A stretch of DNA of 35,443 bases from Caldisericia bacterium (GCA_018054005.1 JAGPKI010000002.1:1-35443); one strand, 5' to 3'. Shown: positions 20,468 to 35,443, numbered from the stretch's first letter. The notes: generated by a model from the letters alone, not told the origin. Made by a program: numbers and translations.

Positions 20468-20831
20468 TTTTGTCTGTGGATAAAATAGCTACATATAAAG
20501 AGTTGATTTTATTTTTTCAATATCTAACAAGATTTCTGGATTTCTTAATTTTATAACAGATTATAATTATGTAACTCTGTTTATATTACCTTCTTTAGTT
20601 CATTAGGTCAATATAAATGAAGTTTTTCGATAATTTTATCACATATTTGAACTATATAATATTACTAATATTAGATTATGAGTTTAAATACTTATTAAAA
20701 TTTTATAGAGTTATTGACCTGTCCTCCTAAAGTATTTTGCAAATTATCAGAGCAATAAAAAACAAGTTAAAGCAAATGTATTATTTAATAGTCGTTCTTA
20801 TTATGATACTTTTCAACATTTTATTAACTTG

Positions 20832-20905
20832 TCGGGATGATGGGATTCGAACCCATGACTTCTTGGTCCCGAACCAAGCGCTCTACCAAACTGAGCCACA
20901 TCCCG
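20832..20905 (-). tRNA. tRNA-Pro (CGG), no encoded CCA
   Basis: The reverse complement is CGGGATGTGGCTCAGTTTGGTAGAGCGCTTGGTTCGGGACCAAGAAGTCATGGGTTCGAATCCCATCATCCCGA. Anticodon arm is CTTGG-TTCGGGA-CCAAG. Confidence 0.9.
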
Positions 20906-20919
20906 TTGGAAATAAAAAA

Positions 20920-20997
20920 TGGTCGGGGCGAGAAGATTCGAACTTCCGACCCCCAGCACCCCATGCTGGTGCGCTAGCCAAACTACGCTACGCCCCG
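20920..20997 (-). tRNA. tRNA-Pro (GGG), CCA encoded
   Basis: The reverse complement is CGGGGCGTAGCGTAGTTTGGCTAGCGCACCAGCATGGGGTGCTGGGGGTCGGAAGTTCGAATCTTCTCGCCCCGACCA. Anticodon arm is CCAGC-ATGGGGT-GCTGG. Confidence 0.9.
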
Positions 20998-21033
20998 TTA
21001 TCTATTTAAAATTTTAGCATGAAATTCAAAATA

Positions 21034-22317
21034 TCAAAATTTTCTGAGTCTTACCCAATCAAATGCTTCTATTGTATACTTTATAAATTCTCTAAGTTCT
21101 AAATAATTATTTTCTATTGAAGCGTTTAGAATGCTATTATAAAGAGATGTTTCTATATTAAAATTCCTGTATGCAGACTTATAAACATTTAGCAATTTGT
21201 CGAATATAAGTTCGAAATCTTCTATTCCAAATTTTCTCAAATCAATTCTATTTTTTATTGAAGGAGAAATTTTTATATCTTTTAGAGGAGTTGTTGCAAT
21301 TACAAGAAAAATATAGGGTTCTTTATAGGAGTAAGGAGTAGGACGAACTTGATTGTGAGCCATAGAGTAATTTATTTTTCGAAGTTTTTTATCATTAAGG
21401 GAAATCCCAATAAGTCCATTCATAAAGTTTAATCCACGCGTATAAAGTTCATTATTCCAGATATGAGTAATTTCTTCAAATTCATCAATAATTATTACTA
21501 AGCCGCTTAATTCTAATTGTCTAACAATATAACTTAAACCACTTATAATGTAGCAATAAAAATCGGCAGCTGTCGAAAAATCGTACAATGCTGGTATAGC
21601 TTGCCCTCCCTTTACACGATAAGGTGAAAACTTAGATGTAGCATACTCTTTAGTAGATTCTCCCTCAATCCATTGCCAGAAAACTTCACTTTTTGAATCA
21701 AGGTTATCCAGTTCCTTCACCCTATTTATAACAGGAGTAAAAAAGCAATGGTCATCAATTTTAAGTTTTGTTGCTTCAATTAAAATATCTCTGAAACTAT
21801 AATCATAGTTATCCCTAATAAAGTGTAAGTTGTAAACAAGCTCATGATACACCTTTTTAGGTCTGAAGGGTGGAGTTTCTTGAGCATGTAGTTCGCAATA
21901 AGTTGTGGCAAAACCTTCTTTCAAAGATAAATGCCGAAAATATTCTAAAAGGTGTGACTTTCCAGAACCATATCCTCCCTCAATCATACAAACATCACTT
22001 ATGCCGTTTCTTAAGTTTTCTAATCCATTCTTTAATAGATTAATTTCTGCTTCTCTGCCAAATGTAAATAGTTCTATATCTTGATGAGGAACAATTCCCA
22101 TTCTAAACGACTCAAGAATTCTTTTTGAAGAGATTTCATCTAAATTAATTTCAGAATCTTCTTTTACTTTAATTGGCTTTAACCATTTTGTAGGAAGCCA
22201 CAAATTTAATCCATTCAGAAATTTAACTCTTGCTTCAGTTCCATCCCAGCGTGTTTCAAGCACAACACCTTCACCAAATATGTTGTGGATGACAAGCTTA
22301 GAATTCTTCTCCTTCAA
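21034..22317 (-). CDS. BrxD/DUF2791-like P-loop ATPase with an N-terminal Tudor/SH3-like module (third gene of operon)
   Basis: 427 aa. Walker A GGYGSGKSH (21955-21978) and Walker B VIIIDE (21481-21498). The pre-P-loop segment RILESFRMGIVPHQDIELFTFGRE matches the pattern I recall for DUF2791/BrxD. Residues 1-50 (VIHNIFGEGVVLETRWDGTEARVKFLNG...) resemble the UvrD/PcrA C-terminal Tudor or DUF3553 motif. TTG start overlaps the upstream gene by 20 nt. Confidence 0.65.
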   Translation of the reverse strand: MKEKNSKLVIHNIFGEGVVLETRWDGTEARVKFLNGLNLWLPTKWLKPIKVKEDSEINLDEISSKRILESFRMGIVPHQDIELFTFGREAEINLLKNGLENLRNGISDVCMIEGGYGSGKSHLLEYFRHLSLKEGFATTYCELHAQETPPFRPKKVYHELVYNLHFIRDNYDYSFRDILIEATKLKIDDHCFFTPVINRVKELDNLDSKSEVFWQWIEGESTKEYATSKFSPYRVKGGQAIPALYDFSTAADFYCYIISGLSYIVRQLELSGLVIIIDEFEEITHIWNNELYTRGLNFMNGLIGISLNDKKLRKINYSMAHNQVRPTPYSYKEPYIFLVIATTPLKDIKISPSIKNRIDLRKFGIEDFELIFDKLLNVYKSAYRNFNIETSLYNSILNASIENNYLELREFIKYTIEAFDWVRLRKF

Positions 22318-23560
22318 CCTCTTCCCTCTCTTTTTGAATTAGTGATTTAGCAGTTGAACGGAATAACTCTCTTGCAGTTGATTTATCGATAGGTGTATTG
22401 TTTACTTTAATCCTTTGGAATGCCTCTATTACTGCGATAACAAATATTCTCCTGTAACTTACATCAAGAAACTGTGATTCAAGTGAAACATTAATTATGT
22501 TTCTCAAGGACTCTTCAAGGACTTTATTATTAAAATCATAAAAATATGCAATCTCATATATTTTTGCTAATTTTAGTCCCAATTCCTTTAAAAATTCAGA
22601 TGGAGAAATTCCTATATCTTCAAGATTAATTTTTACTCCCATAGGATTAACTTTGGTAAAACTTGAGCGAAGACGCTGATTTAAAGCTTCGTAAACACCG
22701 CCACTTCCTTCAAGAAGTAGATTTTCATCGGGTATTGCATAGAAAAACATAGCTCCTGGAAGTTTTGAGTTTCCGCATTCGTCTATTATTTGCCTTAAAT
22801 TATCTAAAGCTCTTCTTCTATCTCGAGATGAGGATATGCTCATTCCTCGTTCAGCTTCGTCAAATAAAAATATAATTCCTGAATAGCCAATCAAATTTAC
22901 AAATTGAACCAAACTTCTTAGCATTCTGAAGGCATTAGTTCTATCAATTCGCTCGGATATTCTATATTTATATTTAAGGTCTCTCGAGATATCTTCTCCT
23001 TTAAGCCATTGTGCAAGCGAATAAAAAAGCTCTTCATCATCGTTTGAGAGACCTGATAAAGCTCCTTTTGTAGCATTCACAAAACTAGTACTTTCAAGGT
23101 TTTTGATGAGGGATAAAAAATTCTTTTCTTCTTTTACCTGTTCATACCATTTCCTTAAAAGTGCTTCTATACCAACTTCCCAAGGTTTAAGTATTTCCGT
23201 TGTACTTAATGGTGGAGTAATATTTAAAGCGATGTTTCTATAAACTAATTCTAATCTATCAAACGGACACTCTGTTGCACTTAAGCTAACATAACTTGTT
23301 ACATAATTATTTTTCCAAGCGAGATCTCTTATCAGGTAAAGAAAATGAGATTTACCACCTCCATAATTACCAACAATTAACTTAAATGATGATAAGTTGT
23401 ATTTTAAAATATCATTTAAATATTCATTTTCAATAACATTTAAATAAGGTTCAAGCCCAACATTAAAATATTCAACTCCTACTTCTGGAGGTGTGCCTGA
23501 ACTACCCAGTTTATGGATTATTACTTTTGCAAGTTTAGGGTCTAAATCTAATTCATTCAT
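22298..23560 (-). CDS. BrxD/DUF2791-like P-loop ATPase, paralog of the downstream gene (second gene of operon)
   Basis: 420 aa. Walker A GNYGGGKSH (23348-23371) and Walker B IIFLFDEAE (22853-22876), followed by an Arg-rich SSSRDRRRALDNL segment. The N-terminal KVIIHKLGSSGTPPEVGVEYFNVGLE aligns with the equivalent segment of the 427-aa protein. Confidence 0.65.
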   Translation of the reverse strand: MNELDLDPKLAKVIIHKLGSSGTPPEVGVEYFNVGLEPYLNVIENEYLNDILKYNLSSFKLIVGNYGGGKSHFLYLIRDLAWKNNYVTSYVSLSATECPFDRLELVYRNIALNITPPLSTTEILKPWEVGIEALLRKWYEQVKEEKNFLSLIKNLESTSFVNATKGALSGLSNDDEELFYSLAQWLKGEDISRDLKYKYRISERIDRTNAFRMLRSLVQFVNLIGYSGIIFLFDEAERGMSISSSRDRRRALDNLRQIIDECGNSKLPGAMFFYAIPDENLLLEGSGGVYEALNQRLRSSFTKVNPMGVKINLEDIGISPSEFLKELGLKLAKIYEIAYFYDFNNKVLEESLRNIINVSLESQFLDVSYRRIFVIAVIEAFQRIKVNNTPIDKSTARELFRSTAKSLIQKEREEVEGEEF

Positions 23561-23571
23561 CTTTTTTATTC

Positions 23572-24465
23572 TTAAAACAATACTTCTCTTACTTTATTCT
23601 CTGTCTCAATTGAAATATATGAATAATATGTCCCGTCTCCTTCGTCGTTATCAGGAATCCAGATAGAGTTTTTTTTATCTCCTGTTGCATCAAAAGTAGC
23701 TACATAAAACTTTAGTCCCTTAACTGCATTATTCGATTTTCGCAAAATGTAAAGAAGATAAGATAATTTTATCCTTGAATAGTCTCGAAAATTTTCTTTT
23801 TTAGGGTCGGTAAAGAATTTTTGAGGTTGTTTAATGAAAACAAATTCATTCAGAACTTCAATAATTGGCAACTTTTCACCAATTATTTTTCCAGTTAATA
23901 ATAGTCTTCTCTTGTAAGCTTCCGTAAAATCCTTAAATAGTTCAACAGGATCTATCTTTTCGCTATTAAGCTCCTTATCAAATTTAGTTATTGAATCATA
24001 AATAGAAGTTGGATTTAGAGGTATTTTTGATTTTATCTTCTCCACTTCAGGACCAAAAAATAATTGAGCCTCTCCAAACTCAAAGTTAAGTTTTATTGTA
24101 TACATTCCAACTCTCAATGTTGGATACTGTCCTTTAATGGTTTTCCCATCTTTTTTAAATAAATCACTTAATTTTTCACCAAAACTAAATCGGAAATCAT
24201 CTTTTGCTTTCTCTAAAATCTCCTTTTCATCGTTAATAAGATTTAAAATTGAGGTTTTAATTGGGAAAGGTGGTAAAACATCAGCTAATTTGGTTATCTC
24301 AGTTAAATTCTTTTCAGCCAAATAAGCATTATCTAAAAGATTTTCTTTTGACTTATTATATTTAGCTAATAATTTTAACACTTTATCTAAATTTTTTGTG
24401 AGTGATTTAATGTTATCAATTATTTCTTTCACAACACAATTATATAAATAACAATAAAAAATCAA
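23572..24465 (-). CDS. Hypothetical protein, N-terminal coiled-coil-like region, no motif recognised (first gene of operon)
   Basis: 297-aa ORF 11 nt upstream of the first ATPase gene. The only possible starts are TTG 24465 or GTG 24432, and there is no clear SD. Coding is supported by length in AT-rich DNA and operon packing. Confidence 0.55.
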   Translation of the reverse strand: MIFYCYLYNCVVKEIIDNIKSLTKNLDKVLKLLAKYNKSKENLLDNAYLAEKNLTEITKLADVLPPFPIKTSILNLINDEKEILEKAKDDFRFSFGEKLSDLFKKDGKTIKGQYPTLRVGMYTIKLNFEFGEAQLFFGPEVEKIKSKIPLNPTSIYDSITKFDKELNSEKIDPVELFKDFTEAYKRRLLLTGKIIGEKLPIIEVLNEFVFIKQPQKFFTDPKKENFRDYSRIKLSYLLYILRKSNNAVKGLKFYVATFDATGDKKNSIWIPDNDEGDGTYYSYISIETENKVREVLF

Positions 24466-24621
24466 ATATTCATTCGTATTTATATGTAATAATTGAAGTT
24501 ACTAATCAAAAATGAGAATTATACCAATGTTTATTATATAAGTTTTGCGAGAGAAAATCAGTTTCTATGCTTAATTCCTCAGATAATAATAACTCCAAAA
24601 TTATATTTGGTAAAGAGATTT

Positions 24622-24697
24622 AATTGTTAGTTATATAAGAGGCACACAAAAGGACTATAGAAAATATTTTCATGCCTTATTATGGCAGAAATGCCAT
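24622..24697. repeat. Intergenic repeat element copy B (inverted relative to 3068-3157) with hairpin TTATGGCA-GAAA-TGCCAT
   Basis: Sequence is AATTGTTAGTTATATAAGAGGCACACAAAAGGACTATAGAAAATATTTTCATGCCTTATTATGGCAGAAATGCCAT. It aligns to the reverse complement of copy A. It lies between the divergent three-gene operon and the MFS gene. Confidence 0.7.
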
Positions 24698-24774
24698 GAA
24701 GTGTTAAAGTGAAATCTTTACTTATCCATAAATTACTAAATAACAATATAATAAATTATAAATATAATAATAAC

Positions 24775-26025
24775 ATGAAAGTAGAAATGGGATCCAAAAT
24801 AAAAACTACACTGCCAGCTCTTAAGTATAGAAATTTTAGACTTTTTTTTAGCGGTCAAGCAATCTCTTTAATAGGGACCTGGATACAAAATATTGCTCAA
24901 CCGTGGCTTGTCTTAACTTTAACTGATTCTCCTTTTCTTCTTAGTTTAGTTGTTACATTTCAAACTTTGCCCCAGATGGTATTTTCGTTATTTATTGGTC
25001 CTTTGATTGATAAAGTTTCAAAGAAGAAAATCTTAATTTTTACTCAAAGTTCATTCTCATTACTTGCAGCAATTTTGGGAATTTTAACATTAACTAAGAG
25101 AGTGGAGTACTGGCATGTTCTTGTGGTTGCAACAATGTTTGGTTTTCTAAATACTCTCGATATGCCAGCAAGGCAGTCATATATGGTGGAATTGGTAGGG
25201 AAAGATGATTTAATGAACGCCATTGCATTGAATTCTTCAATATTTAATCTTGCAAGAATTATTGGACCTGCAATAGGAGGAATTCTTATTGGTTTTGTTG
25301 GTATAGGAATTTGTTTTTTACTAAATGCTGTTTCCTATATAGCAGTGATAGCTCAACTACTTAAAATAAGCGCTGTGAGCGTGAAAAATGATATGCAAAT
25401 TAATAAATTATTTAAAGGATTATTTAAAGATGTAGTTGAAGGATTAAAATATATATTTGCTAAAGAAAGAATAAAGGTAACAGTGACTTTATTTGGTATT
25501 ATTAGTATATTTTGCATGAATTTTAGTGTATTGATACCAGTTTTTTCTCAAAATTTCTTAAAGTTGGATTCTAAAGGATTTGGAATGTTAATGACCGCTA
25601 TGGGTGTAGGGGCTCTTGTTGGTGCTCTTTTTGTTGCTTTAAGCAAAAACAGTAAGCCAAAACTTACTACAATAGTTATTGCAGCATTTGGATTATCTAT
25701 TGGAGAGGCTTTGATGTTTTTTGCGAGTAATTTCTATTTAGCCTTTCTATTATTAGTATTTATTGGCTTTTTTATGATATTATTCACCACTTCCGTTAAT
25801 ACTACTCTTCAGCTTGAGTCAGAAGACAACATCAGAGGAAGAGTTATGAGTGTTTACTCATTTGTCTTTGTTGGTGTTGCTCCTATAGGTTCTCTCTACG
25901 CTGGTGGATTAGCAAGTAAATTAGGAGCAAATATGGCTTTTACTATAAGTGGTATAATAGGGCTTATTGGAACTTTATTGATTGGTTATATTCTACTAAA
26001 AAAAAGAAAAAGGAGTAATTCATGA
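24775..26025 (+). CDS. MFS transporter (MFS_3 / EntS-like subfamily pattern)
   Basis: About 12 TM. The N-terminal motif LKYRNFRLFFSGQAISLIGTWIQNIAQPWLVL is typical of this MFS subgroup. The ORF track begins at GTG 24709 with a low-complexity N-rich leader, so ATG 24775 (or 24787) is more plausible. Confidence 0.85.
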   Translation: MKVEMGSKIKTTLPALKYRNFRLFFSGQAISLIGTWIQNIAQPWLVLTLTDSPFLLSLVVTFQTLPQMVFSLFIGPLIDKVSKKKILIFTQSSFSLLAAILGILTLTKRVEYWHVLVVATMFGFLNTLDMPARQSYMVELVGKDDLMNAIALNSSIFNLARIIGPAIGGILIGFVGIGICFLLNAVSYIAVIAQLLKISAVSVKNDMQINKLFKGLFKDVVEGLKYIFAKERIKVTVTLFGIISIFCMNFSVLIPVFSQNFLKLDSKGFGMLMTAMGVGALVGALFVALSKNSKPKLTTIVIAAFGLSIGEALMFFASNFYLAFLLLVFIGFFMILFTTSVNTTLQLESEDNIRGRVMSVYSFVFVGVAPIGSLYAGGLASKLGANMAFTISGIIGLIGTLLIGYILLKKRKRSNS

Positions 26026-26215
26026 ATTACTCTTGCAATATCAATATGCATGACTCTGTCTTGCTTAAGTTTATAATATTTTTACCATCCTCAGTTATAA
26101 TCCAGAGATATGGTCCGCTATTCTTTAAATAACCTTAATACAAACTGTCCAATTAATTAGGGGGCTGGAACACCATTTCCAAAAGTGATTTCATAAAAAA
26201 CCTTTTCAGAAGCAA

Positions 26216-27595
26216 TTAATATTTAACCAGAAAAATATAGAAAAAAGAGCTGTTCCATAATATTCCAAAAGTAAATGCTACGAAGTTAGCTATTAATAAA
26301 GTGAGAAAAAAGAGCACATTTTCCAAACGGTTTACTACTTTTTTAAGCCAATAAATTATTTTTCTAAACCAGTAAATTATTTTACTTTCACTGGATAATA
26401 TTTCTCCTACATTAGAGTTATTGTGCGGGTTGATCTGAGAACCATTTTTTTGAAATGAGAAATAGAAAGGAAGAATATAAGTAATGGGTACAGCAACAGA
26501 CATCCAGAAAACAACATTTACTTCTATTTCATTCCTAACTGAATATAGAAAAGAAATAAAAGAATCTTTTTGGCAAAGATACAAAAATAAAGACATAAGA
26601 GCAACAAGCTGAAGAGGTACAACTATTTCTTTCTTTTTAAATATTAGCATTATAAGAAATGAAATAAGAATTATTGATAATGCAAATATCAGAAAATAGG
26701 ACGGTGGATTAGTTATAAATTTTGCGAAAATAAGTTCAAAATCAGTAAGTAAATGTTTTCCACTCAATTCGAAATATTTAGCATCAAAAAATAATCTTGA
26801 ATAAATTCCTAAAAGGAGTGTTACAAAAAAGGAAGGCATTAGAAGGCACAAATAAACTAATTTAAGAAAAGGCTCTATTGTTTTTGTACTGTTTCTAATA
26901 AATGAGACTGATACTGTAAGAATAAGTAAGAAAGTAGCAATATAGATAAAGAAGTAAAAAGGAGAAGTCATTATATTCTTAAAAAAGATAAAAAGAATGA
27001 GCTGGACCAGGAGAAGAAGGCATGCATAGTAAGAGGAATATTTACCAGCAAGTCTTGCCAATGCTCCGTTAGAATAGTTATTAAGCTCTGAAGTTATTAT
27101 ATTTTTTCTCCTTTTTACGCAAATCCAGCTCATGAGTATTAATAGCAAACAAATATCTACCAATATAACCCATACAGGTATTTTATTTAAGAAAAGCAGC
27201 ATATCCTCTGAAGAACCAGATATTTTCAAAGTTTCTATCATAGGAGTTAGTGCTATTCCGGAAAGAAATGAAGAATAAAACAGTAATGTAGACCAGAGAA
27301 AAAGACCTGTAACCAGTGAAAGAGTAAAAAAATCGGTGTTGTAATGTCTTGTATTTATTAAGTATGGTAGAAATCGAAAAATAATGAAAAATTCTATAAT
27401 ATGGCAAGAACCGATTAAGACAGATCTAAAAGCTGTATAACCCAGGGGGTATCTCGATAAATCAGATTGAAACAAGGAATAGTGACCATTAAAGTATAAA
27501 AAGGAAAATAGTGAGAAAAAAAATGAAATAAATAAGAGTAAAGGCAAACTCCTCATTATGATTATGTCTTCTGTTACTTTGTTATTATTTTCCAA
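26216..27595 (-). CDS. Polytopic integral membrane protein of unknown function (about 12 predicted TM by eye)
   Basis: 459-aa ORF that is almost entirely hydrophobic segments, with no soluble domain or catalytic motif recognised. Start is uncertain (TTG 27595 or ATG at the MRSLPLL position). Lies 104 nt downstream of direct-repeat copy 1. Confidence 0.7.
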   Translation of the reverse strand: MENNNKVTEDIIIMRSLPLLLFISFFFSLFSFLYFNGHYSLFQSDLSRYPLGYTAFRSVLIGSCHIIEFFIIFRFLPYLINTRHYNTDFFTLSLVTGLFLWSTLLFYSSFLSGIALTPMIETLKISGSSEDMLLFLNKIPVWVILVDICLLLILMSWICVKRRKNIITSELNNYSNGALARLAGKYSSYYACLLLLVQLILFIFFKNIMTSPFYFFIYIATFLLILTVSVSFIRNSTKTIEPFLKLVYLCLLMPSFFVTLLLGIYSRLFFDAKYFELSGKHLLTDFELIFAKFITNPPSYFLIFALSIILISFLIMLIFKKKEIVVPLQLVALMSLFLYLCQKDSFISFLYSVRNEIEVNVVFWMSVAVPITYILPFYFSFQKNGSQINPHNNSNVGEILSSESKIIYWFRKIIYWLKKVVNRLENVLFFLTLLIANFVAFTFGILWNSSFFYIFLVKY

Positions 27596-27698
27596 AATAT
27601 CTTAACTTTTTCTCCTTTCGACGATTATCATCTTAAATTGCTTTTAATTATATAATTATATTTATATAGCTCACATTTAACTTCCCCCATTTCTTTGG

Positions 27699-27825
27699 AC
27701 AGAAATTAGCATAAATCAAAGTGATAAATTTTAAAGTCTCATATGTTTCGTAACTTATTCATTAGTATTTATTGTCTATTACATTATTTTTGATAAATAT
27801 CATCGTTAGTTATATCGGGAATTTA
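27699..27825. repeat. Direct repeat copy 1 (127 bp, identical to 35317-35443)
   Basis: Base-by-base comparison shows 127/127 identity with the last 127 nt of the window. Identity breaks at 27698 versus 35316. The far end is undetermined because copy 2 is cut by the window end. Confidence 0.95.
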
Positions 27826-27851
27826 GGTTAATATTTCCAGTACTAAAATCG

Positions 27852-28067
27852 CTAATAGTGCATTGAAGATAGAGAGTAAGAAAGCCAAAAACAAATTGCT
27901 TCCTTCACATTCTTTATAATTGGTATATTTCTATAACTTGCAGGAATAGGAATTTCAGGAAATATCACTGGCAGTAATAATTTAGTATTTGGGCGACTAA
28001 TCTTTTTAAAAACTAAAGATAATAATGGAAGGATAGAAATAATTGAAGCAATCACAAGGAGAAGCAA
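27852..28067 (-). CDS. Small hydrophobic hypothetical ORF (possibly a gene fragment)
   Basis: 71-aa TTG-initiated ORF. The same frame is stop-free up to about 28183. One TM-like segment (LLLLVIASIISILPLLSLVF); no RBS or family recognised. Confidence 0.25.
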   Translation of the reverse strand: MLLLVIASIISILPLLSLVFKKISRPNTKLLLPVIFPEIPIPASYRNIPIIKNVKEAICFWLSYSLSSMHY

Positions 28068-28419: not shown

Positions 28420-29748
28420 TTAAACGAAGAATATAGCCCTTAATGTATTTAATAAGTTTAAAATGAACAGGAAAGAAAAATATTTCTTTTTTGAATATTT
28501 AGACGGATTGAAAAAGAAGTCAAGCTTGTCAGTCTTTTTCAGAAAAAAAGTTACTACTTTATCCACAACGTAAAAAGTTATTAGAATAACAAAACCACCC
28601 ATCAAACACCATAATAATAAGATTGGTAGTCTATTCATAACTATTGAAGTAGCCATATTGTCAACACTTATCGTATAAGATTGAAAAAATGTCAAAATCT
28701 TACTTATATATAAATTATTGGAAGCAAAGAGTAAGACGGAGATCTGTTGTAGAATTGAGCATAGAAAAACCCAAAATAGACTATTGCTTTTGTGCTTGAA
28801 AAGCAAATAGCTTAAAGTAATAACTATTAAAGATAGTGTGTAACCTATATAAGGTCTGTAGAGTTTAAATAAAGGTTCAACTTTGAAATTAAAAGGAGTA
28901 ACAAAAAGATTAAATCCTCTTGAAAGGGCATATGGAGTAAAGACAAATAGTAGAAGTAATAGAACAACAAATATTGAGTGTTTCTTTATATCTATTTCAC
29001 CCAATGAGTGGTTTTGGTTAGAATTTAAATCCTCATTATCTAAAAGATAAAATTTAAAAAATAAATATAATAGGAAAATCCCGAAAGAGTAATATAGCAA
29101 TATTATGGTTCTTAAAAGATTATTGGAAACTTTATTAATTAATTCATAGAAAAGATATGGCATCAAAACAAGAAAAATTATAGATATAATTAGAAATGGA
29201 ATACCAAATCCATTGATTATAAATGGGTCATTAAAAAGTAATGGTCTTATATTTTCAGAAGAGTAGCTACTTTTTGTTTCATTTGTTATTTCTATTTTTC
29301 TCTCCTTGCTCCACCAATTTTGAATTTTTAAGTAAAAAGCAAAAATAACTATTAAACACACGGAAAAAATTATAGAAAGATAGATTCCAAGATTAATAGG
29401 AGGTTTTAATAAGTCTTTTTCCCATTTGAAAAGAGTAGAAATATTTAAAAATAGGATATAAAATAAAATCAGAAGCGTTGGAGAACTAAGAGAGAATTTA
29501 ATACTTTTCAGATCGGATAATATTTGCCATATGAAATTCAAAAAGGATGTTGCAGTAAGTCCTAAACCTACAATTGCCAAAATAACTAATAATATTATTG
29601 CTTCAGTAGAGAAAGTTGAATAGGGAGTAAATATTTTAAAAATCAGGTTAACTGTTATTACCCCGAACACACCAATGAAAATAGTTAAAAAAGTTATAAG
29701 TAAAGATGTACCTCTAATTTTCTCTTTACTAATACTAAGGGATTTCAT
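28420..29748 (-). CDS. Polytopic integral membrane protein translationally coupled to the Rhs toxin gene (candidate immunity protein)
   Basis: ATG at 29748-29746 overlaps the Rhs TGA (29747-29745) as ATGA, giving MKSLSISKEK..., 442 aa with about 12 hydrophobic segments. The ORF-track start at 29805 lies inside the Rhs gene. Confidence 0.7.
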   Translation of the reverse strand: MKSLSISKEKIRGTSLLITFLTIFIGVFGVITVNLIFKIFTPYSTFSTEAIILLVILAIVGLGLTATSFLNFIWQILSDLKSIKFSLSSPTLLILFYILFLNISTLFKWEKDLLKPPINLGIYLSIIFSVCLIVIFAFYLKIQNWWSKERKIEITNETKSSYSSENIRPLLFNDPFIINGFGIPFLIISIIFLVLMPYLFYELINKVSNNLLRTIILLYYSFGIFLLYLFFKFYLLDNEDLNSNQNHSLGEIDIKKHSIFVVLLLLLFVFTPYALSRGFNLFVTPFNFKVEPLFKLYRPYIGYTLSLIVITLSYLLFKHKSNSLFWVFLCSILQQISVLLFASNNLYISKILTFFQSYTISVDNMATSIVMNRLPILLLWCLMGGFVILITFYVVDKVVTFFLKKTDKLDFFFNPSKYSKKKYFSFLFILNLLNTLRAIFFV

Positions 29749-32700
29749 TTTCCACAATTTCCGCCACTGGGATTTTCTAAATAAGTTGGAACAGTTTGTG
29801 CCCATAAATCTTTAAGTCTACTATCGTATTTTTCAGATTTTTGGAAAGCTTTTTTAACATTGGTGATGTTTTCGCCAATTTTCGAGCAATCATTACTCCA
29901 CTGTTGTGGATGACACATACCCCAAAAATTATAATTTATATAAATCTGTGACTCTCGAGAACTATATACACAGGATAAACTAGTGAATTTTCCAGTTGAA
30001 TCTTGTCCGTTCATTTCGAGAAGTTTTTTACAAATTTTTTGGCATGTGCTAACTACATTATCCATCGCTTCTATATGAGAAGTTGATTGAGAATTGAAAT
30101 AGCCATATATGCTATATGCGCAAGCTATTAATGATGCTAATCCTATAGCTATGCCTGCAGCAACAGCTGAGACAGCAATACCTAAAACGGAAATAGTACC
30201 ACCGCCCCCTACTAAAGCTGTATAAAGTCCTGCAATAGCAGATCCACAACTAACAGCTATTCCTGTAATATCACTCCAACGGAATGAGGAGCCTTTTGCT
30301 GTAGCTAAATTTGATAGCATTTTAGATATTAAGTCGTTCATTTCGCAATTAAGAGTACAACACTTCTCCTTAGACACTAAACCCATTGGATCGATTTTAT
30401 TTACGGGGTCATTTTTGCAGTAGTGGTAAGAATGAATAGTCCACGGATCAGACAAAATCCCTGGACCCCAGATATCCGCTGTTAAAAACCTACATGTGGT
30501 AGAATCATACATTCTTGTTCCCATAGAATACATTTCATCTACTGGTGGAGATTCATATGAGATTGGGGTTGGTTCATAATAGCTTCCAGCAAACTTAAGA
30601 GGATTATAAGAAATTCCTTCACTGTGCTCTATAGTTCCGTAAGGATAATATCCATTTTTTGCCTTAAGTGGCTCATTTAGCAATGGATCATCTGTAGTTC
30701 CAACTACAGAACCAATATAATCATTGTAAAAAAGTTCACTATAAAGTCCTTCACCCGATATACCAGGAATAGGATTTACCTGCATAAGAATCGGAGCTGT
30801 TGCATAGTAAGTGTAATTTAATAGTAAATTATCAGTTGGATCATTTGTGTCCCCTTCTCTAAATTCGCTAATTAGATGTTCACCTTCATAATAGAAAGAT
30901 CTATCACCCATACCTATTCTTCTACCCTCTACATCGTAAGCGATATCTGTAAAATCAATAATATTACCCGCTTGGTCATAAACTTTTATATTTTTTGGAA
31001 AATTTAAAGGACTATACTCTATATGTATTTCATTTTGAAGTTCTCCGTTTGGTGCAAAGTTTTTAATCTTTGTTGGACCGAGCATAGCGTTAATGTCGGG
31101 GTATTCAGGAAGATTATAGAAATATTCTGAAGTTGAAGAGTCAGGATTAGTTACTTCTGTTACTCTATTCATTTCATCATATTCGTAGTGATATGCATAA
31201 GTACCAGTTGGATCTGTAAGAGTTTTTCTTGTCATATTACCACCTATATCATATTCATAGGTGCAGACTTTGTCTCCACGGTAAGCTTTAGTTAACTGTC
31301 CATATGTATCATATTCGTAAAACCATCGAGTATCACTTGTTATTCTATGCATTGAATCATAGGTATATTCATAGTTCATTTCAGGATGCTTAGGATTGGT
31401 TATTTTCTTTAATCTTCCAATCTCATCATATTCATAAGTTGTATTTGTGCTTACTCTTTTTGTTAAAAGATGATCTTTATCATATTCAAAAGTTTCGACT
31501 ACACCGAAAGGAAGCGGTTGATTATTTTTATCAAAGTATTTTTCTTCAATTTTTGTTACATTAAAACATTCATCGACAGTATAATGAATAGATCTTCCAC
31601 TATAATTATATAATTCAGATGTTGCATCATCCGGTTTTATAAAATAATCGATAGGAAGTTCATCTGGATCATAACCATCCAATGTTTCAACAGAAAATTT
31701 ATTCCCGCCTGTTACTTTTCTTTCTAATTTATCACTTAGATTATAGTGATATTCAATGTTTCCAGCTTTTGTTGTTCGTCCTGATTTATCGTATTTATAT
31801 TCTATCCTTGTACCATCCCAAAATTCAATATAATCTAAAAGTCCTTCATTGAGATATCGCATCTTGTTTATCCTTCCGTAAGCATCTTTCATCTCTTTTG
31901 GGTATCTTTCTCTGCCAGGTTCTGTTTCATAAGTATATTCGCGTACGATATTTCCATAATAATCAATTACTTTTGATGTTCTTTCATTTTCATCATAGAT
32001 TATACTAAATTGTGGTCTCCCTCTCTCGTCAATTAAGCTTGAAAGCTTCCCTTCTAAAGTATAATTATACCCTACTCTTTTTCCGTTCCAATCAATTTCT
32101 AGCATTCTGCTATATCTATCATATTTATATTTTGTTTCTGTCCCGTCAGGATTTATTAGTTTTGTAAGATTACCATTTGCATCGTATTCATAGTTGGTTT
32201 CTCCGTAAAAATCTTCCGTTTTTGATATTTTACCACAGCATTGAGAAAATGTTATTTCGTTCCATTTTCCTTCCGGTGAACTAATTTTTACACTTGTCCC
32301 TGACGGATATTCAATGCTGAATTCACTATTACATGCATCACTAATACTAATTAAGTTATTTTGAGCATCATATATTAATTTCATCTTTCTTCCAGCCGGA
32401 GTTATTATTTCTTTAGTCTTTGGAAAAGAATCATCTTCTAAATTGTAAGTAATATTAGTTATATTTCCGTTATTGTTTATACTAATTAAATTTCCATTGA
32501 AGTCGTAAATTACAGTACTTTGCGAAATAGCTGGGGTTATCATTGAGAATTGAGTCTGAATTATTTCTCCTGTTTCTGGGTCAAGCAAAATTGTTCTTGT
32601 AGTCGTGTATTCTCCGTTAACATAATCTTTTAAGTAATTTGGGAAGTTATGGTCAATATAGCTTATAATCGTGTAAAGCTCTGGATTTTCTGCCATTCCA

Positions 32701-35101
32701 ATAATATTATTGCTTGAATCATATGAATAGATTAAAACATCTGCAGATGAAGGATAAATTGTTCTTTCTTCAGTTAAAATTCCATCTTCTCTGAAATGAA
32801 CCTGATTTTTTATGTTGTTTTCATTTATTACTTCTGTATAATTTGAGTAATAGTTATATATCTCACTTAGGCCTGTCTCATCGTGTGAATTTAAGCACTT
32901 TCCATTCTGAGCACAATCATAATACCATATTGAACCTCTTGGGTCAGTAACAGAAAAGACATTATCATTTTCATCCCAGCCAAAAGTCATAGAAAAGCCT
33001 TTACTTGAGAAGATTTGGGTAAGTTTATCTTGAGAATAAGTATAATTTACTGAACCGTCTGGATATGTTATACTTTCTACTTTTCCTGTTACATCATAAT
33101 TTATAGTAGTTGTGCTTCCATTTGGATTTGTTATAGTTGTAATTCTATCAAAACCAAAGATATTTGACCAGCCAAACTGAGTTTTGTATCCTTTACTTTT
33201 GGTTTCTAATAGCCTTCCATCAAGGGAGAATTTAGTTATATTAAAATAACCCTCAGTTAATTGAAATACTCCACCAATATCCTTAATAGTCATTAAGCTG
33301 TTAGATTCAGCAATGTAGATATTTTCTGCTTGGTCATAAATAAAGTTAAAGATAGCTCCTGTTGGGTCTTTAAATTTAATATGGTCATTTAGAACAATGT
33401 CAAAAAGAGAAGATTCAAGTAGGCTTATCCTCTTCTTACCAAACCATCCAGTATCTTCTGACCTGCTATTATATAAAGAGGTTATAGTTGCATTTGCAAA
33501 TGTAGTTTTTGTGGGGTAAGGGGTGTATTCAACCTGTTCAATTATCAAATTTCCATTTCTTAAGTTTGCACTTACATCAAATACAGTTGATGGAGGATTA
33601 AAGAATGTTTCATGTTCAGAGAAGCCAAGCTTACTTTGATCACCTATTATTTCAGTATAAATTACTGTAAGAACTGTTTGACAAGTTCCTCTACTACTTT
33701 CAAATTTCATAGGAATTGGGTTTTCAGAACTATTTGGAATTCTTTCGATTAAAGCTAATCCATTATTTGAAATTGGGTCTGTAAGCCAGCCTTCAATTAG
33801 TGAATTTGGTAGAGTTACAATTGGGCTAAATCCTGATTCCCCTAAATTTGTTAAATTAATAAATCCCTGTATTGATCCAAGAGTAGGTGGAGGAATAAAT
33901 AGAGGCCCTTCTGGCCATGAAGAAGTAACATTATAAATGTCAGTAATGGGTGAAGGATTATTCCCTTTTTCTATTGGGCATAGTGAAAGAGTTGCTGAAT
34001 TTATTTCAATGTTATCTGGTAGAGTTGGTAGCTCAAACCTCATAAGAGATGTAAAAGTAGTAATAGATGAATCTATAATTTCTTTACCAACGAGAAGGTT
34101 TTCATTATAATACTTATTTCCTGCTTCATCAATGTATAAATCCTCTTCTGGTATAACTTCAAATGAAGGGTCAAGTATTACAGGATACTCCGTCTTAGTA
34201 TTTTCTAAGAATTCTTTATCAAGTCTTAACTTCAGCTGAACTTTATCTCCTTTTTCAGATAAAGTAGAGGTAAGAGCTATATTCCTGCCTTCCTTTCCTG
34301 CTTTATCTTTTAGGTTTATTTTTCCTACTTTTAGACTAAATTTCTCCTTCTTAAAAATAAATTTAGCTTCATCTTTTCCAGAGAATGAAACATTTTTAAG
34401 TCTAATATCAAAATTAATTTCACTAAGGATAGGTTTACTCTTAAATATTATCTCCTCCTTAATATTAAAAGAGGAAACTGTGTATTTTAAATCTATTCCA
34501 GAAGCTATATCCTTAAAAATAACAGAATTGCCATCAAAATCTGGTAAAGTAGGTTTAATCCCCTCCATATTAAGCTTAAGTTGAGAGTCTCCTTTAAGGA
34601 GAGAAAATATTAGATTTGACCCTTTCTTTACATCATCATTGCCAGTAAAGAATATCTTAAAGAAAGATGTATCAGAATAATAGCTATAATTAGGAATATT
34701 AGATTTCTTAATTTCAGGCTTTATCCCAATAAGACCTCTTCCACTAATAAAGGTATTAATTGGTTTAGTGTATACTTTGAGAGTATATTTATTTCCATCT
34801 TTTATTGTATTAGAAAATGAAGTCTTTTTGTAAGTTACATCATTGGAAATCTCAGTTTGTGATAAAAGTTGATTTAATCCTTGACGCTGATTTTTTGAAA
34901 GCAGATAAGCTTTGTAATTTCCACTCTCTTTAAGTGAAGAAGCAACTTTTTCATAGGGACTAAAGACAATTAAGAGAAGAATACATAAAAGAGTGACAAG
35001 AAGTCTTGATTTTAAAGGATGATTAGAAGAACTTGAGAGATTTAATTCCGTTCTCTCTCTCTCTCTGCTTGTGAAACTTTGAATCTTTTAAATGAATACA
35101 T
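29745..35101 (-). CDS. WapA-like Rhs/YD-repeat polymorphic toxin; the 5' end (RBS+ATG at 35101) is out of frame with the body at an (AG)7 tract
   Basis: The body ORF 29745-34568 (1607 aa) has many YD repeats (YEYDANGNLTKL, YKYDRYSRMLEI, YEYDEIGRLKKI, YTYDSMHRITS; about 30378-33161). It has a DNRLRE-like N-terminal domain (LMRFELPTLPDNIEINSATLSL) and the Rhs core end motif DPVNKIDPMGL (30378-30392), followed by a 210-aa C-terminal tip. The same frame stays open to 35087 with a signal-anchor-like KSRLLVTLLCILLLIVFSP but no start codon. GAGGAGG, 8 nt, then ATG at 35101 is in a different frame. Confidence 0.85.
35053..35066. repeat. Dinucleotide simple-sequence repeat (CT)7 on plus strand = (AG)7 in the Rhs 5' coding region
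   Basis: Read directly from the sequence: ccg tt ctctctctctctct gctt. Confidence 0.95.
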
Positions 35102-35316: not shown

Positions 35317-35443
35317 ACAGAAATTAGCATAAATCAAAGTGATAAATTTTAAAGTCTCATATGTTTCGTAACTTATTCATTAGTATTTATTGTCTATTAC
35401 ATTATTTTTGATAAATATCATCGTTAGTTATATCGGGAATTTA
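35317..35443. repeat. Direct repeat copy 2 (identical to 27699-27825), truncated by the window end
   Basis: 127/127 identity with copy 1. Lies 216 nt upstream of the Rhs ATG on the minus strand. Confidence 0.95.

Follow-up and report, generated by a model that had tools for sequence, protein, structure and literature searches.

Organization of the Locus

A compact gene cassette lies in a 35,443-nt stretch of DNA from a Caldisericia bacterium (GCA_018054005.1 JAGPKI010000002.1:1-35443), hereafter the window, whose positions are counted from its first letter. Three genes, given the working names geneA, ATP1 and ATP2, are packed on the minus strand, as the first-pass annotation of this DNA had described: geneA and ATP1 are separated by an 11-nt gap (GAATAAAAAAG), and ATP1 and ATP2 overlap by 20 nt. 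The first of them, geneA (23572..24432), encodes a protein of 286 amino acids (aa). Its open reading frame (ORF) extends to a TTG codon at 24465 (23572-24465, 297 aa), and 297 aa was the length initially proposed. The ORF is as described, but translation probably starts at the GTG codon at 24432, since geneA homologs are 277-286 aa long; one of them, P0001 (98% identical), has 286 aa. ATP1 (22298..23560, 420 aa) encodes a BrxD-family (PF10923) AAA+ ATPase of the ORC/Cdc6 type, and ATP2 (21034..22317, 427 aa) a paralog of it, an AAA+ ATPase of the same family that bears a Tudor-like domain at its N-terminus. Two tRNA-Pro genes on the same strand, predicted by ARAGORN (20831..20997), follow 36 nt downstream of ATP2, at the position occupied by a helicase gene in relatives. 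With hundreds of homologs, and a ratio of non-synonymous to synonymous substitution rates (dN/dS) of 0.02-0.11 against a 9%-diverged allele, the three ORFs are, on sequence grounds, not due to chance.

Two Ancient Paralogous ATPases of the BrxD Family

Both ATPases match the Pfam family PF10923 (BrxC_BrxD, gathering score 22.2 bits), ATP1 over its full length (E 5e-46, 157.8 bits) and ATP2 with E 4e-25 (89.1 bits). They align with each other from end to end (24% identity, E 4e-16), in agreement with the proposal that they are paralogs of the DUF2791/BrxD family. As their identity is only 24%, the duplication is ancient, and it is found in archaea as well as in bacteria. In PADLOC, the BrxD model (ATP1 2e-36, 124 bits; ATP2 73 bits) matches both proteins better than the SngB model does (1.5e-23 and 5e-15, respectively). 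Neither protein reaches the 350-bit cut-off of the NCBIfam BrxD equivalog NF033438 (124.6 bits for ATP1, 73.8 bits for ATP2); with the PADLOC BrxD model, the genuine BrxD of a BREX type 6 locus of Aulosira, described below, reaches 552 bits. These PF10923, BrxD and SngB matches place the ATPases in the family first suggested.

The catalytic motifs described at the outset are intact in both proteins and conserved in 51-53 orthologs. In the translation of ATP1, the Walker A motif GNYGGGKSH (23345..23371) is invariant in 53 orthologs and is followed by the Walker B motif IIFLFDEAE (22850..22876); the ATP2 counterparts are GGYGSGKSH (21952..21978) and LVIIIDEFE (21475..21501), all on the minus strand. 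Directly after the Walker B motif of ATP1 comes an Arg-rich segment (RGMSISSSRDRRRA, 22808-22849, minus strand). Such a stretch had been described in the upstream copy only and is indeed specific to ATP1, but ATP2 has a homologous R-G-L-N-F segment. Of the cassette genes, ATP1 is the best conserved, with 54-72% identity across candidate division WOR-3.

The AlphaFold 2 (AF2) model of ATP2 has a predicted local distance difference test score (pLDDT) of 86. Its top Foldseek matches are ORC1, ORC4 and Cdc6 (E 1e-5 to 1e-4, probability 1.0, template modelling (TM) score 0.3-0.4), and they include the archaeal Orc1/Cdc6 heterodimer of S. solfataricus (2qby_A). ATP2 is thus predicted by its model to have the ORC/Cdc6 fold, and fold similarity places it in that AAA+ clade. 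BrxD itself has been assigned to the ORC/Cdc6 group of AAA+ ATPases; it is described as a tight partner of BrxHI and proposed to be a helicase loader (PMC12839542).

The extra N-terminal domain announced for ATP2 is real and conserved. In the AF2 model, a small beta domain takes up the first approximately 45 residues, its four strands lying at residues 8-42, and the H..FGEG motif is conserved in the orthologs, Aminicenantes and Asgard copies included. From the model and the motif, this small beta-barrel (KLVIHNIFGEGVVLETRWDGTEARVKFLNGLNLWLPTKW, 22183..22299, minus strand) resembles the Tudor-like domain of PcrA/UvrD. The Pfam model PcrA_UvrD_tudor (PF21196, gathering score 23.9 bits) matches 3 of 10 ATP2 orthologs, all below threshold (best ortholog 18.6 bits, E 0.0017), and does not match the ATP2 of the window. 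When a profile of the N-terminus was searched against PDB sequences, the C-terminal Tudor domains of UvrD came first (7egs_B and 6yi2_A, E 0.016-0.019). The Tudor domain of PcrA/UvrD binds RNA polymerase (PMC5397179, PMC8318588, PMC7585439). The Tudor-like domain is absent from both ATP2 copies found on plasmids (see below).

geneA, a Partner Protein Without a Recognized Family

The first-pass annotation had recognized nothing in the product of geneA, and the searches bear this out: it has no family in Pfam, PADLOC or NCBIfam, and Pfam and PADLOC are also blank for its homologs from Aminicenantes, Asgard archaea and plasmids. Its AF2 model (pLDDT 89, predicted TM score 0.77) opens with three long helices (residues 2-93); the alpha/beta domain behind them has one sheet of five strands, a helical region and one sheet of three strands. 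The Foldseek comparison that had been proposed for this model was run against PDB and BFVD, and no neighbour was found at E<0.03.

Across 143 diverse members of the family, the only conserved residues are structural ones together with Q202 and R220, so that geneA is unlikely, from its conservation pattern, to be an enzyme. Two candidate assignments were rejected. A nuclease or phosphatase function was suggested by an FDATxDK motif, which is kept in WOR-3 only and lost in the wider family. A relationship to TerB was compared by hhalign with the Shango-type TerB protein of Clostridium estertheticum, and the probability was 0.14%.

The homologs of geneA fall into 156 clusters, almost all from metagenome-assembled genomes (MAGs) of candidate division WOR-3. 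When 1.84 billion cluster representatives were searched with a profile, 705 relatives emerged, and the named distant ones belong to Aminicenantes, Planctomycetota, Promethearchaeota/Helarchaeota and Methanomethylicaceae. A broad geneA hidden Markov model matches the first genes of the two plasmid cassettes, 279 aa long, at 200 of its 281 positions (E 5e-17, negligible bias). The Asgard geneA (locus L051, 1935-3035, Promethearchaeota) is longer (366 aa) and carries an added Rho_N/SAP-like module at residues 87-122, which scores 25.4 bits for a gathering score of 24.9; this module hints at an association with nucleic acids. A HEPN gene and a UFC1-like gene are found close by in the same Asgard locus.

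A Four-Gene Cassette Shared by Bacteria and Archaea

The order geneA-ATP1-ATP2 is identical in all 43 species-level genome loci compared, and the trio is thus conserved as a unit across genomes. Directly after it, in approximately 27 of the 43 loci, comes a gene for a helicase of about 670 aa with DEAD, Helicase_C and Cas3-like_C_2 domains, which is matched by the PADLOC models BrxHI (3e-61) and SngC (4e-59); over the helicases of all relatives compared, the values range from 3e-61 to 4e-87 for BrxHI and from 4e-59 to 8e-74 for SngC. All four genes are present in every distant locus that was opened: L049 and L063 from Aminicenantes, L051 from an Asgard archaeon and L053 from an unclassified lineage. 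The wider metagenome sampling of distant clades used a narrower alignment and comprises four loci only.

A tblastn search with ATP1 against plasmids revealed the four-gene cassette on two plasmids of cultured bacteria. On the 27-kb plasmid pDESTI.01 of Desulfomonile tiedjei DSM 6799, it lies near an AbiEi/AbiEii module. On plasmid3 of Aulosira laxa NIES-50, it starts 173 nt past a complete BREX (bacteriophage exclusion) type 6 locus, which carries its own BrxD and BrxHI, apart from the cassette. The cassette proteins have the accessions WP_014813311-WP_014813314 in D. tiedjei and BAZ78461-BAZ78464 in Aulosira.

The four genes are therefore a fixed-order cassette across bacteria and archaea. 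The first-pass annotation, which had described a three-gene operon without BREX or Shango partners, has to be corrected on this point, as the unit has four genes and a helicase of the BrxHI/SngC type follows the trio in most WOR-3 loci. It was right about the window itself, whose 35 kb hold no methyltransferase, PglZ, TerB or helicase gene; the scan covered the large ORFs and part of the smaller ones, and none of the smaller ORFs is long enough for PglZ, PglX or BrxC. It was also right in knowing of no named system with such an architecture: none was found in PADLOC 2.0, Pfam or the literature searched, and papers on DUF2791, BrxD/BrxHI, SngB/SngC, WOR-3 defence and Lhr-like helicase operons yielded no description of the cassette. 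A 2026 survey of BREX diversity treats BrxD as type 2-specific.

Two further observations concern the region beyond the helicase. In 11 WOR-3 loci (L001, 15677-16489, and ten others), the helicase gene is followed by a gene of about 270 aa with a weak fibronectin type III match. This gene, which is absent from the window, may be either a fifth linked gene or a plain syntenic neighbour. In another WOR-3 locus (L056, 1027-8617), the macromolecular-synthesis operon, made up of rpsU, a MutS2-like gene, dnaG and rpoD, comes directly after the cassette helicase.

Loss of Helicase Linkage in the Lineage of the Window

In a neighbour-joining tree built on ATP1 and ATP2, every outgroup and the basal clade of WOR-3 have the helicase adjacent to the trio. 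Loci with the trio only are found in the lineage of the window (the window, L007, L060 and L061) and in a neighbouring clade of 11 species, where ordinary genes or tRNAs follow ATP2. In the window, the tRNA-Pro genes take this place and no helicase is adjacent, a state that is the same in L007, L060 and L061. Since adjacency is found in the outgroups and in the basal clade, the tree indicates that adjacency is ancestral and that the helicase-less state is derived, by a lineage-specific loss of linkage.

In one trio-only genome, that of L008, a helicase (P0293) is encoded 13 kb from the trio, on the same contig (JBNAVN010000002.1) and strand, beside unrelated genes. It is 69% identical to the helicase of L004, in line with the other cassette genes. 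The helicase has therefore moved away in this genome and has been retained.

Judged from its substitution rates, the trio is nevertheless under strong purifying selection, although the helicase is not adjacent. Between the window and the 9%-diverged allele of L007 (dS 0.4-0.6), dN/dS is 0.11 for geneA, 0.02 for ATP1 and 0.07 for ATP2. The tRNA-Pro pair travels with the trio in the lineage of the window and is probably context rather than a functional part of the system.

Surroundings of the Trio in the Window

Besides the trio, the window contains genes for IF-2, FtsH, a TilS-like protein, PdxS, FNT, threonyl-tRNA synthetase (ThrRS), five tRNAs, a major facilitator superfamily (MFS) transporter, two membrane proteins without assignment and an RHS-repeat protein. 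The tRNA cluster reported next to the trio and the polymorphic-toxin (RHS) locus reported near it were thus both recovered. The trio had also been placed at a boundary between core and accessory DNA; the boundary is real, but the trio stands on its core side and is not part of the accessory DNA.

The comparison with related genomes locates this boundary. The upstream block at 24423-27862, with the MFS transporter and a 459-aa membrane protein, is identical in L007 except for 1 mismatch, and the trio there is 9% diverged. L006, a MAG labelled Caldisericota, gives a 100% identity match to the window; in it the upstream block is replaced by GDH, GNAT and UPF0047 genes, and the trio is 99.3% identical to that of the window. 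L061, an independent assembly that is 97.8% identical over 12.9 kb, reproduces the downstream side of the window. From these comparisons, the upstream MFS-RHS block looks like a recently exchanged accessory island with its edge at the start of geneA; a chimeric assembly may alternatively account for the pattern at 24423-27862. We considered whether the 9% divergence of the trio in L007 could reflect mobility of the cassette or diversifying selection, and rejected this, as island exchange explains it better and dN/dS is low.

On the other side, the block 24433..20832 is a unit common to the window, L060 and L007, and synteny with L007 and L060 stops right after the two tRNA-Pro genes (20823-20832). 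Beyond these genes, the window and L061 continue with tRNA-Leu, tRNA-Ser and ThrRS, L007 with a BamB-like gene and a gene without assignment, and L060 with phenylalanyl-tRNA synthetase (PheRS). The site after the tRNA-Pro genes is, by this synteny break, a point of rearrangement or integration.

Farther from the trio, the last 127 nt of the window (35317-35443) are identical to 27699-27825, forming a direct repeat that may run past the end of the window. It brackets a block of about 7.6 kb that holds a 461-aa ORF and a 1607-aa RHS-repeat ORF. Two ORFs of approximately 460 aa each (26216-27595 and 28420-29805) have no Pfam family and adjoin the RHS-repeat gene (29745-34568); the first of them is visibly a multi-pass membrane protein.

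Relation to Shango, BREX and Helicase Loaders

Shango, for which anti-phage activity has been shown experimentally, resembles the cassette in having, in one operon, a small first gene, a PF10923 ATPase and a superfamily 2 (SF2) helicase of the BrxHI/SngC family, and in having no obvious nuclease effector. It differs in that geneA is not TerB, that the ATPase of the cassette is doubled as ancient paralogs, that ATP2 has a Tudor-like N-terminus and that the helicase is unlinked from the trio in the lineage of the window. Of the Shango components, the window has the DUF2791 ATPase (SngB); the first gene of the trio is not a TerB-domain SngA, and no SngC is found in the operon.

The BrxD-BrxHI pairs of BREX-2 (Pgl) and BREX-6 belong to the same families as the cassette proteins, provide their best PADLOC matches and likewise have the ATPase tightly linked upstream of the helicase. 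The cassette, however, has no BrxC, PglX, PglZ or PglW and stands on its own, its ATPases score far below the BrxD equivalog threshold, and it has geneA and a second ATPase in addition. PglZ/BrxZ and BrxC/PglY, which together mark BREX, were found neither in the window nor beside the cassette in some 45 related loci; BREX occurs on the Aulosira plasmid alone, as a separate, complete type 6 locus.

The fold of ATP2 is closest to that of archaeal Orc1/Cdc6 pairs, such as the Orc1-1/Orc1-3 heterodimer of S. solfataricus, and of eukaryotic ORC-Cdc6 loaders, in which paralogous AAA+ subunits act with a helicase. Unlike these, it shows no membership at sequence level, its TM scores are 0.3-0.4, no C-terminal winged helix was detected, and the helicase of the cassette is an SF2 helicase of the Ski2/Lhr-like type, not MCM; the likeness is one of mechanism, by analogy only. 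Similarly, the 45 N-terminal residues of ATP2 share with the PcrA/UvrD Tudor domain an H-x-x-F-G-E-G ... V-x-F motif, but they stand at the N-terminus of an AAA+ ATPase and not at the C-terminus of an SF1 helicase, and their scores are sub-threshold.

The enzyme families of the cassette are already known. What is new is the combination of a partner protein without a match in Pfam, PADLOC, PDB or BFVD, two ancient paralogous ATPases and a helicase, which stands apart from BREX and TerB, together with the Tudor-like domain fused to ATP2 and the split locus of the window. The best reading of these comparisons is that the cassette is related to Shango and to the BrxD-BrxHI pairs of BREX-2/6 and is a member of neither.

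A Defence System or a Housekeeping Machine?

We give about an even chance to the possibility that the trio is the local part of a four-component loader-plus-helicase surveillance machine, with defence as its likelier role. ATP1 and ATP2 would form a hetero-oligomer, like the paralogous Orc1/Cdc6 pairs. In an ATP-dependent manner, this loader or switch would put the helicase onto its nucleic-acid substrate or activate it there. geneA could be a non-catalytic, helical and alpha/beta adaptor or sensor, taking the place of the TerB of Shango or of the BREX-2/6 core, and the Tudor-like domain of ATP2 might tether the complex to another protein, for which RNA polymerase is a candidate. Homology and the plasmid contexts suggest surveillance or restriction of foreign or aberrant DNA as the most likely role. 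In WOR-3, the system would have turned into a stably inherited chromosomal fixture, the helicase gene probably being at another locus in the lineage of the window.

Several results weigh against this model. The trio had been said to lie in a typical setting for conflict systems, a claim that proves weak, since almost all neighbours of the 42 chromosomal loci are housekeeping genes (ThrRS, PheRS, lysyl-tRNA synthetase, fructose-bisphosphatase (FBPase), FtsK, LptB/D, MutS2-DnaG-RpoD, GyrB). Defence-type neighbours are found in only two of these 42 loci, both in Stahlbacteria MAGs (L024, 11886-16357, and L027, 4175-5992), as insertions directly after ATP2: a DNA methylase (type III-like in PADLOC) with a radical S-adenosylmethionine protein in L024, and a phospholipase D-type nuclease/SNF2 helicase in L027. 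Close relatives of both loci have the cassette helicase at the position of the insertion, and the two insertions themselves speak for defence. The cassette also diverges in step with its flanking core genes. ATP1 and ATP2 are 81% identical between L001 and L002 (flanking genes 64-93%) and 78-79% identical between L008 and L017 (74-94% for the genes flanking the trio in both loci). When the window is compared with L004, ATP1 (71% identity) is even more conserved than ThrRS (49%). Such conservation and in-step divergence are unusual for defence, because defence genes are usually patchy and fast-evolving. Moreover, no copy of the cassette was found in IMG/VR or in phage records, only 2 of 72,556 plasmids carry it, and it encodes no nuclease or other obvious effector. 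Finally, the Tudor assignment of the ATP2 N-terminus is itself tentative, as it rests on below-threshold scores.

A PADLOC census of the flanking genes at first gave MADS, TIR and SspH matches. Two groups checked with Pfam turned out to be a cNMP-binding protein and FtsK, and generic domain matches would explain the TIR and SspH ones. The group suspected behind the mad8 match proved to be FBPase; an ABC ATPase is a possible, unconfirmed source, and mad8 and mad3 were not traced to genes. A mobile or viral origin of the cassette was rejected, with no relatives in IMG/VR or phages and two plasmids only.

The same results bear on a role in housekeeping genome maintenance, which we regard as unlikely but deserving serious consideration. 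The Tudor-like domain would dock on RNA polymerase and the AAA+ pair would recruit the Lhr-like helicase to stalled transcription complexes, R-loops or damaged DNA. The core-gene neighbourhoods, the divergence that tracks the flanks, the higher conservation of ATP1 than of ThrRS and the low dN/dS (0.02-0.11) all fit this role, as do the single copy per locus, the synteny that is stable within subclades, the absence of an effector domain from the cassette, and the searches of IMG/VR and phage records, which found no viral copies. Among PDB sequences, moreover, the Tudor-like domain matches the C-terminal domains of UvrD best, and these bind RNA polymerase. On the other hand, all characterised relatives of the ATPases and of the helicase are defence components, in BREX-2/6 and Shango, and the sporadic distribution of the cassette, over distant phyla and on plasmids beside BREX-6 and AbiE, looks as if an accessory module had spread horizontally. 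Furthermore, both plasmid copies have no Tudor domain, which is therefore not part of the core mechanism. A related and rather unlikely proposal is that a BrxD/BrxHI-type module was domesticated as, or originally was, a vertically inherited, housekeeping-grade machine of the whole candidate phylum WOR-3, in which the Tudor-bearing AAA+ pair couples the Lhr-like helicase to RNA polymerase or stalled nucleic-acid complexes.

The remaining explanations concern the missing helicase. In line with the first-pass annotation, the trio could be a self-contained system that works in this lineage without an SF2 helicase. It might, for instance, be a hetero-oligomeric switch that is driven by ATP and has another output. 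It is stable in two clades and at least 15 species-level loci with varied downstream genes, it is under strong purifying selection, and the 35-kb window has no helicase. We nevertheless hold this to be improbable, as helicase adjacency is ancestral and near-universal elsewhere, the one trio-only genome checked (L008) retains an orthologous helicase (69% identity), and no other output domain is encoded. That the trio is a decaying remnant, heading for pseudogenisation after loss of the helicase, would agree with the local absence of the latter, but is very hard to reconcile with intact frames, kept catalytic motifs, dN/dS of 0.02-0.11 at dS of 0.4-0.6 and the persistence of the trio-only state across many diverged species. 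Least probable of all is a fragment of a canonical BREX (type 2/6) or Shango system, to which the PF10923 match and the PADLOC BrxD and SngB matches might point; membership is refuted, as PglZ, PglX, BrxC and TerB are missing from the window and from some 45 related loci, the BrxD cut-off is missed, geneA is unrelated to TerB and the BREX-6 locus of Aulosira has its own BrxD and BrxHI.

Significance

To our knowledge, no mechanism is known for BrxD and SngB, and few components of BREX-2/6 and Shango are so poorly understood. The cassette offers an ATPase-helicase pair that stands outside BREX and without TerB, always with two paralogous ATPases and a partner whose fold is not recognized. Its two paralogs point to a hetero-oligomeric loader, and it could serve as a minimal system for studying the pair; the copies of Desulfomonile tiedjei DSM 6799 and Aulosira laxa NIES-50 are in cultured strains and can be tested. 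If the housekeeping-grade origin were true, BREX-2/6 and Shango would have taken their enigmatic ATPase-helicase modules from a loader system for genome maintenance, at whose centre would stand a partner protein without a fold match in the searches made. Defence systems that are split across the genome would escape searches based on operon adjacency. The WOR-3 copies, which are syntenic, strongly constrained and sometimes unlinked from their helicase, prompt one to ask whether modules of this kind always serve in immunity.

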